From a virus (Duplodnaviria > Caudoviricetes), in the IMG/VR virus record IMGVR_UViG_3300032335_000770, positions 1 to 37,471 of that record: a DNA stretch of 37,471 nucleotides. One strand, 5' to 3'. The position numbers and the translations under genes are program-made. Positions 3,884-37,357 of this stretch are shown here, piece by piece (the stretch's first letter is position 1; each line of letters starts with the position of its first letter). The notes under the pieces were generated by a model. The model was not told the DNA's origin and did not search any database. It saw only the letters and a program-made list of their open reading frames with translations.

Positions 3884-3905
3884 ATCTTAGGCTTTCTACG
3901 GCCTA
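3799..3905 (-). promoter_or_regulatory. structured cis-regulatory RNA / attenuator-like terminator
   Basis: 18-bp stem (3805-3822 with 3849-3866; four G-U pairs that form only on the minus strand) followed by U6. An upstream 5-bp hairpin has a loop GUAGAAA complementary to UUUCUAC inside the large hairpin. Confidence 0.6.
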
Positions 3906-3934
3906 GTTGTTGTTTATCGTATCCGCTCCCCGCG

Positions 3935-31358: not shown

Positions 31359-33149
31359 TTATTCCTTCGGCGCTGCGTAGCGAATCACGTTCGCAATCGT
31401 GGCCATGCAAAGCAGCATCGCCGAGGTGTCCAGCCCGTGATTCGGCGCGTTGCTTTTCACTTCTTTCCACTCCCAGACGCCGGTCCGAATCTCAACCTTT
31501 GACTCGCCCTTGAGGTGTTCGAGGTAGAGCGGGTTTACGTCCTTCGGGAGAAGCCATTTCAAATCGCCCTTGGCTTCCAGCGCGTTCGCGAGGAGGTCTT
31601 TGAAATAGTCGCCGCTCCAGTCGTAATAAAACACGTCTCCGCCCCGGTAGTCGCTCACTCGTGGCTCCGAGAACGGGAAGTTGATCAGCTTGTCGGTCGC
31701 CTCGTCGCGCATCGTCCAAGTCTTGCGAGCGTAACCGCGCATCCCTCGCCAGCCAAAGTCCGCGCAATCCCGGTCCACGTCGGCCGGGCGGTAGCCGCGA
31801 TCTTGGGCAACGCATGAGTCCTGCACCTTGTAGCGGTGCTGAATCTGTCGCAGTTGGTCCCGCGTCTCGACGCGCCCGAAATAGAGCTGCCGGTAAGTCG
31901 GACCGGTCGCCGAGCTGAAAGCGCCGATCTCGACCCACCAATGGTCCTGCTGCCGGTCGATTGCCATGAAGCGAATCACCTCGCCGTCGATTGCCTCGCC
32001 GTTGGAGAACTGCGCGACGCTGTAGTCGCTCGCCTGCACGAACAAATTGACCACCTTCTTCTCGACAATCCACGGCCTCGCCTCGCGCTTGGTCTTGAAT
32101 TCGATCTTCATCTTGTCGTCACCCTGACGCACGAAATGATTGTCCGCCTCGCAGAACTCTTCGACGAGCAGCCGCATCGGACGGCTCACCAGCGACTCGA
32201 CGCGGAAGCTCTGAATCTCGTCCGGCGCATCCTTGTTCAGCGGCACGAACCGCCCGGCCCGCTTCCAGCCGGTCCGCGTCGTGTCCGTGTCCGGCGACTC
32301 GTGGCCGCAATGCGGGCAACGGAATCGGCACGACTCGACCGCCCGCGCCACGTCCCACGTTTCGTCATCGCGCCTCGCCGCAACATCCCAGACCACGCCG
32401 CCGCGAAGCCCGGTCTCTTCGTTCTTGTCCAGCGCGAACGCGAGCGGGTGCACCTTGTGGCACGCCGGACACTCGGTGCTCCATTCTTGCTGGGTGCCCT
32501 GGCGGAAGCTCGTGTCCTCCACGTTGCCGGTTTCGAGGTCCATTATCGGCGCCTGTGACGTGTTGTAAATCTTCGAGCGCCCGACTTCCTCGAAGCGTGA
32601 GACGCGGGCGACGGCGTGACCATAGACCTCTTGCCACTTCGGTAGCCAAATCTCGTCGTTGATCTTGTAGCGGATGGACTGCGATTGCTGGCTGGAAAGG
32701 TTGGCCGGGTTGAGCAGAAAAAAGAATCCGCCGAAATAGATTTCCGTCGTCGTCCGGTGCGGCCCGACTCGCGGAAGCATCGCCGCCACCGGCTTGCAGC
32801 TCTCGAAGATCGGGTTGAGCCGAGACTTCGCGTGCCGGTCGATCATCTCGTCGGTCTGCATCGTCCACGAAATCGGTCCGGCGTCGTTGCAAATCAGCCA
32901 CGGCACCCAGATGTCAGCGACGAGCGTGCCGCCGATCTGCACGGCCTTGCGGAAATGCACGCGGCGCACCAGCGGATTTTGGAGCGCATCGAAGATCGGA
33001 ATCAGCCACGGCGAAATCTTGACGTTGAAGGGACCGGGCGTGGCGTAGCTTTCCGGTAGAATGATGTGCTTCCGCGCCCACTCGTAAATCGGCGAGCGGT
33101 CGGGCTGCGGCAGGCGCAGCGTAGCGCATAGGATGTCGGAGGCGGTCAC
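31359..33149 (-). CDS. terL: terminase large subunit (GpA-like)
   Basis: KAVQIGGT, INDE, CPAC/CPHCG zinc motifs, AIDRQ, DRGY and NHGLD nuclease motifs. Confidence 0.9.
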   Translation of the reverse strand: MTASDILCATLRLPQPDRSPIYEWARKHIILPESYATPGPFNVKISPWLIPIFDALQNPLVRRVHFRKAVQIGGTLVADIWVPWLICNDAGPISWTMQTDEMIDRHAKSRLNPIFESCKPVAAMLPRVGPHRTTTEIYFGGFFFLLNPANLSSQQSQSIRYKINDEIWLPKWQEVYGHAVARVSRFEEVGRSKIYNTSQAPIMDLETGNVEDTSFRQGTQQEWSTECPACHKVHPLAFALDKNEETGLRGGVVWDVAARRDDETWDVARAVESCRFRCPHCGHESPDTDTTRTGWKRAGRFVPLNKDAPDEIQSFRVESLVSRPMRLLVEEFCEADNHFVRQGDDKMKIEFKTKREARPWIVEKKVVNLFVQASDYSVAQFSNGEAIDGEVIRFMAIDRQQDHWWVEIGAFSSATGPTYRQLYFGRVETRDQLRQIQHRYKVQDSCVAQDRGYRPADVDRDCADFGWRGMRGYARKTWTMRDEATDKLINFPFSEPRVSDYRGGDVFYYDWSGDYFKDLLANALEAKGDLKWLLPKDVNPLYLEHLKGESKVEIRTGVWEWKEVKSNAPNHGLDTSAMLLCMATIANVIRYAAPKE

Positions 33150-33450: not shown

Positions 33451-33571
33451 AGTGCGTCGGAGGCGGTCACCAGATCAGGTGGAGCGCCCACGTTGAAAAC
33501 GCCTCGCCCTGACTCATGCCGCGAGCCTTGCACCAAGCGCGAAACCGCGCCGCGACTTGCGGACGCACGCG
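33451..33571. repeat. 121-bp direct repeat (other copy at 35301-35421)
   Basis: About 9 mismatches by hand. Covers the 3' half of the RHH-like gene and the first terL-like codons. Confidence 0.9.
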
Positions 33572-33670
33572 GCGTCGCACGGTGTCGGGATCTCGCTGGC
33601 GGCTTTCTAGCGTGCGCCGGCCGATGCCGGCCTGCGCGCAGGCGTCGTCAATGGCTTGGTCCGTCAGCAT
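33467..33670 (-). CDS. chimeric small gene (HTH gene 5' half + RHH-like gene 3' half)
   Basis: MLTDQ...DTVRRR from 34030-34248 joined in frame to VRPQVAARF...WALHLI from 35317-35499. Confidence 0.65.
   Translation of the reverse strand: MLTDQAIDDACAQAGIGRRTLESRQRDPDTVRRRVRPQVAARFRAWCKARGMSQGEAFSTWALHLIW
33568..33670. repeat. 103-bp direct repeat (other copy at 34146-34248)
   Basis: 4 mismatches by hand. Confidence 0.9.
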
Positions 33671-33678
33671 GGTTCGGC

Positions 33679-33891
33679 TCAAAGAGACATTGGTGTGTTC
33701 CACGCGTCGCCGTAGACCTCGCGGTCGTAGCGTTCTGCGGGAGTTTCCTCGTCGTCGCTATGATACGCCTTGAGGTAGGCGCGCGCGGTTTCGTTGCTCA
33801 CCGGTCCGTCGCCTTCGGCGCGCGCCAGTTTGTGCGCCTCGGCCTGCTCGGCGTTGTGCGCGTAGGGTTTTCCGTCCGGGTCAGTTGTCAT
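33679..33891 (-). CDS. hypothetical acidic protein
   Basis: MTTDPDGKPY...WNTPMSL. Confidence 0.5.
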   Translation of the reverse strand: MTTDPDGKPYAHNAEQAEAHKLARAEGDGPVSNETARAYLKAYHSDDEETPAERYDREVYGDAWNTPMSL

Positions 33892-34033
33892 GGTAGTTGA
33901 GAGTTTTCCCGCAGGTTGTGCAGCGCCACGCGCCGTCACGGCATACGCCGCCGCAGAGTCCGGCGACGCATCCCAGACGCCGAACCCAGCGCCCGAGCCA
34001 AGCGGCACACGAACGGTAAATTTTAAATTTCAT
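33881..34033 (-). CDS. 50-aa Cys-rich protein (not in ORF track)
   Basis: MKFKIYRSC...GCVAGLCGGVCRDGAWRCTTCGKTLNYHDN; ATGA overlap with the upstream gene. Confidence 0.5.
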   Translation of the reverse strand: MKFKIYRSCAAWLGRWVRRLGCVAGLCGGVCRDGAWRCTTCGKTLNYHDN

Positions 34034-34248
34034 GCTAGATGATTTCGGAGCAGGTTCTTGATCTGCCTGGGCGTGCGGTGCAGCGCGAGGCCGATCTCCC
34101 GCTGCGTCCAGCCGTGCGCGTTGGCGAGCAACCAGGCCACGATCTCGCGGCGTCGCACCGTGTCGGGATCTCGCTGGCGGCTTTCCAGCGTGCGCCGGCC
34201 GATGCCGGCCTGCGCGCAGGCGTCGTCAATGGCCTGGTCGGTCAGCAT
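34030..34248 (-). CDS. small HTH protein (DnaA C-terminal-like)
   Basis: R..DTVRRREIVAWLL..GWTQREIGLALHRT. Confidence 0.65.
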   Translation of the reverse strand: MLTDQAIDDACAQAGIGRRTLESRQRDPDTVRRREIVAWLLANAHGWTQREIGLALHRTPRQIKNLLRNHLA

Positions 34249-34286
34249 TTTTTGTGATAGGCAGAAAACTTTCGGCCTAGTGACTG

Positions 34287-34565
34287 TTAGGCCAAGACTT
34301 CGTAAGTCGCGCCCGTGGTGAGTTCGTCGGCGATACTTTCCATCACGACGCGCGCGAAATGTTTCTGCGCGCCGGGCTCCGCTGGGAATGTCTCCTCGCC
34401 GTGCCATTTTAGTTGGCTCGCCAGTTTCGCGTCGCGCTCGGCGAGTTTGATCGTTTCCGCGAGCAGTTCGGACGCGAGCACGCTGCACGCGGTCAGTTGT
34501 TCAGAAGCGCCTGCTGCCTCGATGGCGTAGCAGAGTGCGCGAGCTTTTTCGGTGGTGGTTTTCAT
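34287..34565 (-). CDS. cassette 1 hypothetical protein
   Basis: 92 aa; its TAA stop lies inside the core site (GCC TAA C). Confidence 0.7.
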   Translation of the reverse strand: MKTTTEKARALCYAIEAAGASEQLTACSVLASELLAETIKLAERDAKLASQLKWHGEETFPAEPGAQKHFARVVMESIADELTTGATYEVLA

Positions 34566-34578
34566 AGGTAAAAAGAGG

Positions 34579-34671
34579 GCCTAACCAGCGCATCACAGAC
34601 AAGGCGCTGACGGGGCCGTTGAGTTGATTTATTGTCCGTCCGCAGCGCCTGTCTGACTGCGAATGTTCGGC
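34579..34671 (+). repeat. attC-like site 1
   Basis: GCCTAAC..CAGAC(A)AGGCGCTG / CAGCGCCTGTCTG..GTTCGGC; 93 bp. Confidence 0.75.
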
Positions 34672-34871
34672 TGAAAGTATGCGGTGGCCATTGAGAGAGC
34701 TTCGCGGAAAGCGCGGTGCCGGTTCTCGTGCATTTTCCGGCACGGCATTTCGGGTTTTAGTCCGGCGACCACCAGCCGCTCGGCTTCGACCACGCCAGCG
34801 AGCAGTTGCAAGAACCCATCCGCCGAACCAGACGCCACAGAACAACGCTCGGGAATTTTCCGTTTTTTCAT
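34629..34871 (-). CDS. cassette 2 hypothetical protein
   Basis: 80 aa. GGAG and ATG lie inside the attC2 loop; the stop lies inside the attC1 loop. Confidence 0.6.
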   Translation of the reverse strand: MKKRKIPERCSVASGSADGFLQLLAGVVEAERLVVAGLKPEMPCRKMHENRHRAFREALSMATAYFQPNIRSQTGAADGQ

Positions 34872-34934
34872 ATTTAATCTCCGCTCAGCGCCGAGGGACG
34901 TTCGCCCGAGCGTGTCTGAGCTAAATTGTTAGGC
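34822..34934 (+). repeat. attC-like site 2
   Basis: GCCGAAC..CAGA(A)CA(A)CGCTCGGG / CCCGAGCGTGTCTG..GTTAGGC; 113 bp. Confidence 0.8.
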
Positions 34935-35105
34935 ATTGGCTGGCGTTGATGCTTTTGGGAATCGCGTGAGTTCTACTTCGGCCAAGGCGATTGCTTCGGC
35001 GTAGGTTTCGGCCTCGACGCGGGCATCACGCATTTTCAGCCGCGCCAGTTTTTCTCGTGAGGTTAGATCGGCAATTACTCGTTTGAGGTGTTCTTGTTCG
35101 GTCAT
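34929..35105 (-). CDS. cassette 3 hypothetical 58-aa helical protein (not in ORF track)
   Basis: MTEQEHLKRVIADLTSREKLARLKMRDARVEAETYAEAIALAEVELTRFPKASTPANA; TAA inside the core site. Confidence 0.7.
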   Translation of the reverse strand: MTEQEHLKRVIADLTSREKLARLKMRDARVEAETYAEAIALAEVELTRFPKASTPANA

Positions 35106-35135
35106 TTTATTGGTATGTTTGAGGTTAAAAACGGA

Positions 35136-35222
35136 GCCTAACCATGCACTACAGAGAACGCGGGCAAGGCCCCCATTGCGTGCTAGGGCCGGTCCTCCGC
35201 GTCTCTGACCGCGACGTCACGC
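35136..35222 (+). repeat. attC-like site 3 (degenerate right core, GTCACGC)
   Basis: GCCTAAC..T(A)CAGAG(A)ACGCGG / CCGCGTCTCTGA; 87 bp. Confidence 0.7.
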
Positions 35223-35284
35223 GCTCCTCCTCTCGTCGCCCATGCCGCGCTCGATCTTGTTGCGGAAGTTGGCGGGCAAGGTGT

Positions 35285-35320
35285 GCGCAGGGTGGTGAGG
35301 AGTGCGTCGGAGGCGGTCAC
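35285..35320 (-). pseudogene. relic of the terL 5' end
   Basis: Encodes MTASDALLTTLR versus terL MTASDILCATLR; shares GTGACCGCCTCCGAC. Confidence 0.65.
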
Positions 35321-35499
35321 GCGATCAGGTGGAGCGCCCACGTTGAAAACGCTTCGCTCTGACTTATGCCGCGAGCCTTGCACCACGCACGGAACCGCGC
35401 AGCGACTTGCGGACGCACGCGCACCGTCACGGCGACGGCGCGCTGGTTAGGCGCGAGCGGCTTGCGGCCCGCTCCTTTGCGTTTGCCGCCGGAGGTCAT
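35317..35499 (-). CDS. small DNA-binding protein (GGKRKGAGRKP + ribbon-helix-helix-like)
   Basis: MTSGGKRKGAGRKP..VAVTVRVRPQVAARFRAWC..GISQSE; ATGA overlap. Confidence 0.7.
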   Translation of the reverse strand: MTSGGKRKGAGRKPLAPNQRAVAVTVRVRPQVAARFRAWCKARGISQSEAFSTWALHLIA

Positions 35500-35702
35500 G
35501 GCTGAGACTCTTTTTTTGCCGAGTTTTCTTTTTGGCAATTGTATCGAAAACCAAGTTCGTTTCTCCATCCGGTCATTTCTTCCAGCTTTTCAAGCAGGAA
35601 TTGCACATCGTTTGCCGCTTCGGTTCTTGATCCTCCTGCCGTAAAATATCCGCCACCGTAAAGGGTGGCGGAGCGTTTTTTAATTTCTGCAAGGGTGTTC
35701 AC
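35496..35702 (-). CDS. hypothetical protein
   Basis: 68 aa; coupled on both sides. Confidence 0.55.
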   Translation of the reverse strand: MNTLAEIKKRSATLYGGGYFTAGGSRTEAANDVQFLLEKLEEMTGWRNELGFRYNCQKENSAKKESQP

Positions 35703-35908
35703 GCTACGGTGTATCCTTTGCGTTGAGCAAAAACAACAAAGTCGCTGAACTTTGTTTTTGGCATTTCAATAGAAACTGGAGCAACACCAGCGCAGCCAAA
35801 CATTTGCCGAAAAAAATCGCGAGCGCGTTCAGTAGCTGGCGCGACGGTAACAGTGACCAAGGAAAAATCGCCAGTGGCGATGAAGTCGAATGAGGAGGCA
35901 GAGGTCAT
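35699..35908 (-). CDS. hypothetical protein
   Basis: 69 aa; first gene of the insert. Confidence 0.6.
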   Translation of the reverse strand: MTSASSFDFIATGDFSLVTVTVAPATERARDFFRQMFGCAGVAPVSIEMPKTKFSDFVVFAQRKGYTVA

Positions 35909-35909
35909 G

Positions 35910-35957
35910 TTTCAAACCCTAAAGCCCGTTTGATTGATTGCAAGCACTATTTCAAAC
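35910..35957 (-). promoter_or_regulatory. putative promoter/operator of the accessory insert
   Basis: TTGCAA-16nt-TAGGGT, 7 nt before the ATG. tttcaaac occurs at 35910 and 35950, with an inverted gtttga at 35928. Confidence 0.4.
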
Positions 35958-35964
35958 AATCGCT

Positions 35965-36441
35965 TCACTCCCTCGACCGGTCCAGCGCCTCGGCCTCGAA
36001 CGTCGCAATGTTCGCGTTCACGATCTCGCGGATCTCCGACAAGATCGCTGCGCCTTCGACGTTCAGTTCGGCGGCGTTCATCCCGACGCCGCGAGGTCCG
36101 AGTTCGATTGTCAGCTTGAGCCGCAGCAGCAGGTCCAACTTTTGGCCAAGCGTTACCAGCATCGCCTCGACCACTTCCCGATCAATCACGTCGCCGGCCT
36201 CGCGCTCGTTCTTGGACCGGGCGAGGCGGATTTGCTCGCGCATGAGTTCGGCTTTGAGGTCGGCGAGTCCGCCGCCGCTTCCGCCTACGCGTCCAAGTCC
36301 GTGCGAGTCAGCCCACGCTTTGACTTGCTCGAAAGTGCCGTCGTGCGGAAAGCCGTCGCGCTTGCGCCAGTTGCGCAGCGTGCGGATGTCGATTTGCAGC
36401 TTTTCAGAAAGCGCGATCAGATCGGGTTCAGGCTTGGGCAT
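35965..36441 (-). CDS. terS: terminase small subunit (Nu1-like)
   Basis: N-terminal HTH (IDIRTLRNWRKRDGFP..VKAW), coiled coil, GDVIDREVVE. Confidence 0.8.
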   Translation of the reverse strand: MPKPEPDLIALSEKLQIDIRTLRNWRKRDGFPHDGTFEQVKAWADSHGLGRVGGSGGGLADLKAELMREQIRLARSKNEREAGDVIDREVVEAMLVTLGQKLDLLLRLKLTIELGPRGVGMNAAELNVEGAAILSEIREIVNANIATFEAEALDRSRE

Positions 36442-37357
36442 AGTTTGAACCTTTGCTGATATTTTCCGACGCCCACATTGGCTGGAGATTGCGCCAGTTG
36501 AAACACTGAATCACCTGCTCTTTGTCGTTCAAATCAAACGATGCGCACGGCCTGATGTGGTCAACGTGCCATTCGCCGTAATTTTCCCACGTCATTCCTT
36601 TCTCAAATTTGCCCTCGATGTAGGTTCTGAGAAATTCAACTGAGCACCCGACCAGAGAAAATGAGCCCCTGCTATTAACTCTGTTCCTTTTCATTGCGCT
36701 CCATATCCGACTCATGACGCGCTTTCTGAGCCTGACAGACGGAATCGTCATTTTCATCTGATATCTCGCTTTTCTTGTTTCGCTAGGAGTCAGCGAATCG
36801 CTTGGCTTGAAATAATTCCTTCGCTTGGTCGTGTCGATCCCAGCCTCTTTCAAAGCGTGCAAAACCTGACAGCTAGACGTTCCAAATTCCTTGGCGATTG
36901 TTTTGCATCCTCTTCCTTGATGATAACGAGCCATCATGACGATGATGTTATCCCATGCTTTGCTTGCGCTTGATCTGAACTGAATCGCATTACTGCCGCC
37001 TTTAACGTGGCGTCCAGTCAGCCAATCAATCACGTCGCCCTGAATTACTTTGTGAAGCTTGCAGATGTGAACCCATCCCATCGTTTGATCGTAAATTATT
37101 TGTCTCAGCTTTGGACCGATCTGAGACCGATGGAAGAATAGCGACCCCCGATAGCTTATGTCCACGAGAGCCATTCGATAGAGTCCTTTTAATTGCGATA
37201 ATTCTGATATCGTCTGGTCGCAGATTTCTCCCGTGTAAATGTTTTGCCATCTGTGCAACCACCCCACGCGAGAGTTTGGCGTTGTTGGCGCACGCCGAAA
37301 GTTTTGCGTCGGTTTTTGCACGCCCTCCTTTTCGTCCCATAGCTCTAGCTGCTTCAT
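36428..37357 (-). CDS. HNH-type (homing-like) endonuclease
   Basis: LVGCSVEFLRTYIEGKFEKGMTWENYGEWHVDHIRPCASFDL..CFNWRNLQPMWASENISK. Internal HTH; lower GC than its neighbours. True start uncertain. Confidence 0.8.
   Translation of the reverse strand: MKQLELWDEKEGVQKPTQNFRRAPTTPNSRVGWLHRWQNIYTGEICDQTISELSQLKGLYRMALVDISYRGSLFFHRSQIGPKLRQIIYDQTMGWVHICKLHKVIQGDVIDWLTGRHVKGGSNAIQFRSSASKAWDNIIVMMARYHQGRGCKTIAKEFGTSSCQVLHALKEAGIDTTKRRNYFKPSDSLTPSETRKARYQMKMTIPSVRLRKRVMSRIWSAMKRNRVNSRGSFSLVGCSVEFLRTYIEGKFEKGMTWENYGEWHVDHIRPCASFDLNDKEQVIQCFNWRNLQPMWASENISKGSNYAQA

Follow-up and report, generated by a model that had tools for sequence, protein, structure and literature searches.

An integrase-less array of antisense integron-type cassettes in a tailed phage, probably built in another phage lineage

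The viral record IMGVR_UViG_3300032335_000770, the whole of which (37,471 bases) is called here the window, carries three sites, attC1, attC2 and attC3, which sequence comparison confirmed as a genuine attC-type cassette array, that is, a phage CALIN. The array has no integrase, and its genes run antisense to the attC sites. In our opinion, it was probably built by IntI at a core provided by the stop codon of another phage's gene, and then likely came into the present phage as a passenger.

Three attC sites in the terS-terL gap

The record has a completeness rating of 100%, yet it is linear. It belongs to a tailed phage according to its PHROG matches (terminase subunits, portal, major head protein, tail fibre, RecT-like annealing protein, exonuclease VIII and RusA), and every gene lies on the minus strand. 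The array sits inside the 2,815-nt gap between the genes for the terminase small (terS) and large (terL) subunits. A sequence-only reading had claimed that the phage lacks an integrase, and indeed the search of the record for a tyrosine recombinase gave 0 PF00589 matches. Being devoid of an intI gene, the array is not a complete integron; what we found, three attC sites of the same polarity within 650 bp and no neighbouring intI, corresponds to a CALIN. One contig of run X1, which may be where this DNA comes from, covers 34204-35986 with zero differences and at a depth of 38, equal to that of the flanks, so misassembly of the array is unlikely. Ahead of terS lies a gene for a 309-aa endonuclease VII-like protein (36428-37357), in an A+T-richer stretch, which only some relatives have. 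The features discussed below are as follows (R1 is the covariance model described in this section).

31359..33149, minus strand: terminase large subunit gene (terL), phrog_15, E 3e-37; left anchor of the variable gap
34249..34292, plus strand: 37-nt leader and first core (G/TTAGGC at 34286-34292), attI-like or terminator-like
34287..34565, minus strand: cassette 1 gene, 92 aa, TAA stop within the core, no family
34579..34671, plus as top strand: attC1, 93 bp; R1 46.1 bits, E 1.5e-9; stop codon of ORF 2 in the loop
34629..34871, minus strand: cassette 2 gene (ORF 2), 80 aa, in frame through both adjoining attC arms
34822..34934, plus as top strand: attC2, 113 bp; R1 57.3 bits, E 2.5e-12; ATG of ORF 2 in the loop
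34929..35105, minus strand: cassette 3 gene, 58 aa, TAA stop within the core, no family
35136..35222, plus as top strand: attC3, 87 bp; R1 42.2 bits, E 1.4e-8
35965..36441, minus strand: terminase small subunit gene (terS), phrog_57, E 1e-6; right anchor of the variable gap

The motif GCCKAACCA-N5/6-YACAGA, searched on both strands, occurs three times in the window, always on the plus strand, at 34579, 34822 and 35136. The earlier description of three imperfect palindromes of 87-113 bp with these motif ends, a left arm containing additional bases, and the triplets GTT, GTT and GTC held at all coordinates. The right cores are GTTCGGC in attC1, GTTAGGC in attC2 and GTCACGC in attC3, and, as had also been noticed, left and preceding right cores are exactly reverse-complementary in 3/3 cases (34286/34579, 34665/34822, 34928/35136). 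Both attC1 and attC2 have the GTT triplet, and their cores pair at 6/7 positions. In attC3, R' has GTC instead of GTT and pairs at 5/7 positions with its own left core; this right core, G/TCACGC, is supplied by the stop codon of a gene that we call X, and the contigs of runs X4 and X10 show no difference at it. The sites show the L box, extrahelical bases on the L'' arm (three extra left-arm bases in attC2, as seen from the arm alignment), the unpaired spacer and the variable terminal structure. Since the extra bases are in the left arm and attC1 scores 46.1 bits on the plus vs. 13.1 bits on the minus strand, the plus strand is the attC top strand. This bears out the proposal that the genes are antisense to the sites and co-directional with phage transcription.

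To score the sites, we used a purpose-built covariance model, R1, in place of the IntegronFinder and HattCI models. A pattern derived from attC1 and attC2 was scanned over 185,579 genomes, which gave 59 loci, mostly titled Rariglobus, Opitutaceae or Verrucomicrobiota, and R1 was built from 48 aligned sites out of 72 distinct ones, all representing the Opitutaceae-type bacterial attC. The stem of the training alignment covaries (91.7% paired, reached in 0/500 shuffles, with slid controls at 14-32%). The covariance-model check suggested by the sequence-only reading came out positive: R1 matched the three sites on the plus strand, and the best other match in the window reached only 14.5 bits (33 matches). 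For attC1 and attC2, the motif contributes to the score in a partly circular way because the training sites were chosen with the window-derived pattern. Two lines of support are free of this circularity, namely the score of attC3, which falls outside the pattern yet gains 42 bits, and an array of 13 such sites behind a true IntI in an Opitutaceae chromosomal integron (L207). As for folding, only attC1 is clearly better than shuffled sequences (bottom strand z -3.9, compared with -0.5 for attC2 and -1.2 for attC3); the recombinogenic fold costs 0, 0.8 and 0.8 kcal/mol above the minimum for attC1, attC2 and attC3, respectively. Excision of cassettes 1 and 2 in trans may still be possible; attC3 is likely weak.

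Antisense genes, core breakpoints and the insertion target

Each interval between cores holds one small ORF, in agreement with the first description, and all three ORFs are on the minus strand. In a classical cassette, the ORF occupies the top strand of attC and ends at R''; the window genes depart from this rule. The stops of cassettes 1 and 3 are the TAA of the R' core, and ORF 2 starts in the attC2 loop and stops in the attC1 loop. In cassette 2, codon changes relative to its homolog in the contig L192 comprise 17 synonymous vs. 2 non-synonymous in the minus frame; the mirror plus frame is also open and gives 13 vs. 4. The cassette 1 protein has 9 database matches, itself counted, and that of cassette 3 has two (95% and 69%). 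Two cassette 1 homologs, P0005 and P0006, end in EPN plus residues fitting an antisense read-through into an attC arm. When the cassette 1 and cassette 2 proteins were sought in viral contigs, only the identical copy of the window locus, L001, was found. None of the three cassette proteins was assigned to a family by Pfam, PHROGs or the protein atlas (scores < 0.8 in the atlas), and for this reason we propose no function for them. Promoter and terminator scans were not above chance (3 vs. 1.4 and 9 vs. 7.6).

The same layout prevails in other viral arrays. By the longest ORF, which is a crude basis for sense/antisense calls, the cassettes in 26 other viral loci comprise 61 antisense, 17 sense and 16 unclear cases (n = 94, with cores exactly matched in 68/94), vs. 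3 antisense, 22 sense and 1 unclear among bacterial cassettes of the same attC type (n = 26). Ten viral arrays of this type (L088, L090, L098, L101, L102, L104, L112, L114, L118, L120) contain 3-10 attC sites and share cassettes in a different order. The RHH-like gene that neighbours the array in the window, 35317-35478, starts like cassette genes in two of them, L118 and L120, as judged by eye.

One line of evidence for breakpoints at the cores is cassette 2. Its 21 protein homologs are conserved only between the two cores, with unrelated termini: the conserved part ends with PN in 19/21 and begins with GS or CS in 17/21, which are the translations of the two cores. DNA for the homologs came from three metagenome contigs. 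In L192 and L194, which represent one element, identity to cassette 2 (88-89%) starts exactly from the G of G/TT at 34665, and the cassette is surrounded by other neighbours and other attC sites. In the third contig, L193, the identity is 80%, and the alignment continues 15 nt past the core into a motif-like arm.

A second line of evidence is the junction between gene X and a helix-turn-helix (HTH) gene, which flank the array in the window. L191 is a fragment of a different phage, with a terminase-like protein that fails to align with the window TerL. It has the empty site: the HTH gene (97% to 34035-34248) directly follows gene X (89% to 35232-35286), whose stop codon together with one further base spells GTTAGGC on the top strand. 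In the window, the gene X stop codon forms the GTCACGC core of attC3. In a contig of run X10 (23.7 kb, depth 48; the same study as X1 but another sample), 270 other letters, covered here by length and flanks, stand between 34254 and 35216, and homology resumes at the core G. L191, X10 and the window thus show the junction in three states: empty, holding one insert and holding three cassettes. Two further contigs, each at a depth below 3, link the right arm of attC3 to the full gene X (run X4) and place an attC3 variant behind another cassette (run X5). Taken together, these comparisons support the view that the cassettes moved with breakpoints at the cores in the donor lineage. The check on relatives and breakpoints thus gave a divided answer: breakpoints exact to the core were found in other contigs (cassette 2 and X10), but none of the 79 relatives of the window phage described below has an attC.

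The sequence-only reading had placed an attI-like or secondary insertion site at 34250-34292. In favour of this, 15/19 letters of the leader match the attI of a prophage integron (L210, see below), which ranks first among the 1169 GTT sites compared with that attI, and 9/5000 shuffles do as well against this single, hand-picked sequence. Over 72 intI leaders, however, 33/400 shuffles match as well and 22/1169 window sites reach 15/19; the 12 nt before the core alone are unremarkable (163/1169). The attI reading is suggestive only, and the insertion target appears better placed at the right-hand core, i.e., the stop codon of donor-phage gene X. The second-best match to the prophage attI (13/19) lies at 3900-3918, between the HNH and RusA genes, with no attC nearby.

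If 34249-34292 were an attI, the array could be a remnant of a complete phage integron in which the HTH gene had replaced intI. This is a sub-case of the explanation given above, with the cassettes added at the left end, not the right, and we regard it as rather unlikely, though deserving serious consideration. Apart from the attI match, it draws on the distance of 37 nt between the first core and the HTH start codon, comparable to the 33 nt between attI and the intI start in L210 and L214, and on a viral array (L216) adjoining an intI whose 5' part is out of frame. Against it, in addition to the counts just given, a scan of the collection yielded no third copy of the leader, its two matches being the pattern's own two sources; L191 and X10 have the HTH gene beside gene X without the leader; and the leader forms a terminator-like hairpin on the minus strand, which may simply be a terminator.

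The foreign block and the source of the integrase

The array lies within a longer foreign block, which is bracketed by two copies of a phage repeat; the parts are listed here.

33451..33588, no strand assigned: left copy of a 138-bp repeat (terL-start copy plus the 3' end of an RHH gene), 88% to 35301-35438
33568..35286, no strand assigned: foreign block carrying the array, about 1.7 kb, absent from 79 relatives, with ends matching the L191-type phage
33672..33985, plus strand: possible decayed fourth cassette, cores GTTCGGC/GCCGAAC around a 70-aa antisense gene (33679-33891)
34030..34248, minus strand: HTH gene of the donor block, HTH_23 E 5.5e-5 (below the cut-off), 97% DNA identity to L191
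35217..35286, minus strand: 3' remnant of donor gene X, 89% to L191 over 35232-35286, full gene in X4 and X10
35301..35438, no strand assigned: right copy of the 138-bp repeat, 88% to the left copy

Neither end of the block is an att core. At the left end, the HTH gene is fused to the 3' end of the RHH gene, and at the right end, the gene X remnant is fused to the terL-start copy. The left fusion yields a chimeric gene, 33467-33670, with an HTH N-terminus and the C-terminus of the RHH gene 35317-35478. The HTH gene, downstream of the array in the sense of transcription, gave 35 matches in a protein search. The terL start motif is present in three copies (33138, 33459 and 35309), and relatives gain or lose gap modules at this repeat. 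The candidate fourth cassette gained no hairpin support, having no R1 match, a fold no better than shuffles and no intact attC; the L191 match continues through its core at 33672. A contig of run X2 joins the whole HTH gene to this candidate, and in a contig of run X4 the HTH start is immediately followed by another core-like sequence.

Among 293 TerL relatives, 80 (92-100% identity) were kept, one of which is the identical copy L001. R1 found an attC in 0/79 of the others, 61 of which span the whole terS-terL gap (3-1,910 nt), as well as in 0/5 whole relative records. The whole records G016-G019 contain no part of the block, and GenBank phages gave no match to 34250-35300. Since the relatives lack attC sites and the block is foreign with ends other than att cores, we regard the array as a passenger, not a shuffling device of the window phage; the earlier idea of gene acquisition or shuffling by such a route in this phage lineage finds no support here. 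The array likely reached the window phage on the 1.7-kb block, which would have entered by short-homology recombination, the phage having RecT-like and exonuclease VIII proteins. With such an entry, and with block ends that are not att cores, the IntI-type events would belong to the donor lineage.

Which IntI might have served these sites? The proposed match of the attC style to host integrons was found: the same type occurs in bacterial arrays, mostly of Opitutaceae or Verrucomicrobiota, and, judged by the attC style alone, the host is likely a member of the Opitutaceae or another verrucomicrobial species; TerL relatives in 301 genomes of the Opitutaceae family, only 22-36% identical, add nothing to this assignment. 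An IntI scoring over the TIGR02249 cut-off (265) is present in 3/5 genomes with this attC type, and in L207 it is followed by 13 plus-strand sites. Two of those in one Rariglobus genome (G004) lie in prophage-like contigs, with TIGR02249 scores of 295 (L210) and 277 (L213) bits, and in both the cassettes run with intI, i.e., antisense. The L210 IntI aligns over its length with VchIntIA (PDB 2a3v, E 6e-56). In L210 (G004:C7:247000-253988, the same element as L214), this gene has terminase, portal and head genes as neighbours, the attI lies 33 nt ahead of its start, and one of the antisense cassettes is for an adenine methyltransferase; in L213 (G004:C5), which also has IntI, a RusA-like gene and a primase flank the antisense cassettes.

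IntI relatives are also encoded by 186 viral stretches, 80 of which were kept; 4/4 tested exceed the TIGR02249 cut-off. At viral intI loci, all 27 R1 matches are on the strand facing away from intI, and the upstream ORFs share the direction of intI in 37 cases, oppose it in 1 and are unclear in 11 (n = 49 distinct viral loci with enough flank). These viral contigs (L214-L293) carry a short leader with a GTT core at its end, the leaders being of recurring types, and in L233, L253 and L274 a second, phage-type integrase adjoins IntI. A tyrosine recombinase was detected in 0/5 of the other viral records examined, four with arrays and the one containing L191 (only one of the five is near complete). 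Given the prophage and viral IntIs with antisense cassettes, the array is at least as likely to have been built by a phage-encoded IntI as by that of the host, and we lean slightly towards an IntI encoded by a prophage or a relative of the donor rather than by the host chromosome.

That the window phage itself employs a chromosomal IntI of its host in trans, gaining and shuffling genes at 34250-34292, we consider improbable. The host-type attC style, the IntI over the cut-off in three of five such genomes and the intact cores of attC1 and attC2 are in keeping with this idea, as is the reported recombination of lytic-phage attC by IntI1 (PMC9892861). It is opposed by the lack of attC in the 79 relatives and five whole relative records, by the block ends, which are not att sites, and by the mostly sense orientation of host cassettes. 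Besides, cassette 2 was not found in 301 genomes of the Opitutaceae family, apart from one 32% match inside a 618-aa frame.

The attC sites appear to have been re-paired with gene bodies, because the attC of cassette 2 has an identity of only 0.40-0.54 to those of its homologs (background 0.60), and two attC sites that are 94% alike (L193:63-157 and L085), each with an ATG for the antisense gene, stand on unrelated genes. The latter pair suggests that attC may be a swappable start module. Two identical viral cassette pairs keep their attC (1.00 and 0.92), while one 98% pair does not (0.76). A change of attC by cassette 2 is not predicted by classical bottom-strand cassette movement. Such re-pairing gives some ground to the idea that the attC-like hairpins are now boundary repeats, no longer served by IntI, across which RecT-type annealing of the phage swaps genes; the RecT-like and exonuclease VIII proteins of the phage and the mosaic make-up which the same gap shows in relatives at the repeats of the terL start (gap 3-1910 nt) speak for it as well. 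But the breakpoints coincide with the core G, the variant core pairs remain matched (68/94), the empty site offers only 7 nt and the extra-base pattern is retained, which makes this idea quite improbable, slightly more so than the use of a host IntI by the window phage. Finally, chance palindromes, terminators or an assembly artefact can practically be dismissed: though two of the three sites fold no better than shuffles, R1 gives E-values of 1e-8 or better, the depth is even along one contig, an identical copy (L001) exists, no Rfam family matches the sites, and cassette 2 homology in other contigs starts at G/TT.

Precedents, proposed origin and meaning

Integrase-less phage arrays as such are already published. 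Qi 2023 (PMC9892861) describes 17 phage CALINs, and IntI1 recombined five of six sites. Those arrays resemble the window in having at least two attC within 3 kb, one ORF per interval and no intI, and the TJE1 array has, just as here, a hairpin with inverted cores at its edge. The TJE1 and PH101 arrays are described there as typical, and antisense genes are not reported in the text covered here, though the annotation or figures of the paper may show some; nor does that text present an empty site, and the complete integrons it describes derive from hosts, whereas the window has antisense read-through genes and an empty counterpart. Our literature search, with subscription journals and preprint supplements outside its coverage, found no antisense phage arrays and no phage IntI class, so the mirror-image layout of a phage CALIN is not found in the literature searched.

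Sedentary chromosomal integrons of Opitutaceae (e.g., L207, G002 contig 25) share with the window the attC type, its length (88-114 bp) and the GCCKAAC/GTTMGGC cores, but their cassettes are mostly sense (22/26) and follow intI and attI. The phage-encoded IntI integrons (L210, L213 and L214-L293) are like the window in the attC polarity against the genes, in the small phage-type genes and in the starts and stops inside attC, and unlike it in that the window has no intI. According to work on attG insertion and SALINs (10.1101/2022.09.11.507474), IntI genome targets have the consensus GWT and no strand bias in E. coli, and small CALINs are proposed to arise by insertion of cassettes into the genome. 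The window is similar in that cassettes apparently entered a short core outside any integron; the filled target, GTC, is outside the consensus, the empty L191 copy is GTT, and the target is a phage stop codon. The reverse-oriented IntIs of Spirochaetota mentioned in 10.1101/2022.02.06.479319 are a separate matter from antisense cassettes.

The proposed origin of the array is as follows. Recombination of the attC bottom strand at the AAC of R' is established (PMC5027507), and here too IntI would act on the bottom strand of every site, in the same manner as for attCaadA7 and VCR. The cassettes were likely inserted by IntI at the core formed by the stop codon of the donor-phage gene. A TAA stop followed by C reads GTTA on the other strand, so that a target at the end of a phage gene would set the attC top strand against phage transcription, and because of this only antisense cassette genes would be read, without a promoter of their own, from the leftward terS-to-terL transcript. 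The 1.7-kb block would then enter the window phage through short homologies.

In a broader perspective, phages of Verrucomicrobiota and other hosts may run a mirror-image integron economy with their own IntI, antisense cassettes, stop-codon cores and re-paired attC, in which the attC sites would supply gene starts and be re-paired with other gene bodies; we give this broader interpretation an even chance. The window itself is of limited weight, since its array is small, integrase-less and probably a one-off passenger with genes of no known family. The polarity of its attC sites is normal and the genes are reversed, which is the case in most viral arrays examined. If the economy exists, the window would be a snapshot of cassettes spreading into an integrase-less phage family, and the empty, filled and swapped sites would make the origin of new cassettes directly testable. 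If IntI works on these sites, for which the empty and filled alleles are ready substrates, phages would share a pool of accessory genes by site-specific recombination, and any gene end reading TAA-C would be a potential docking site.
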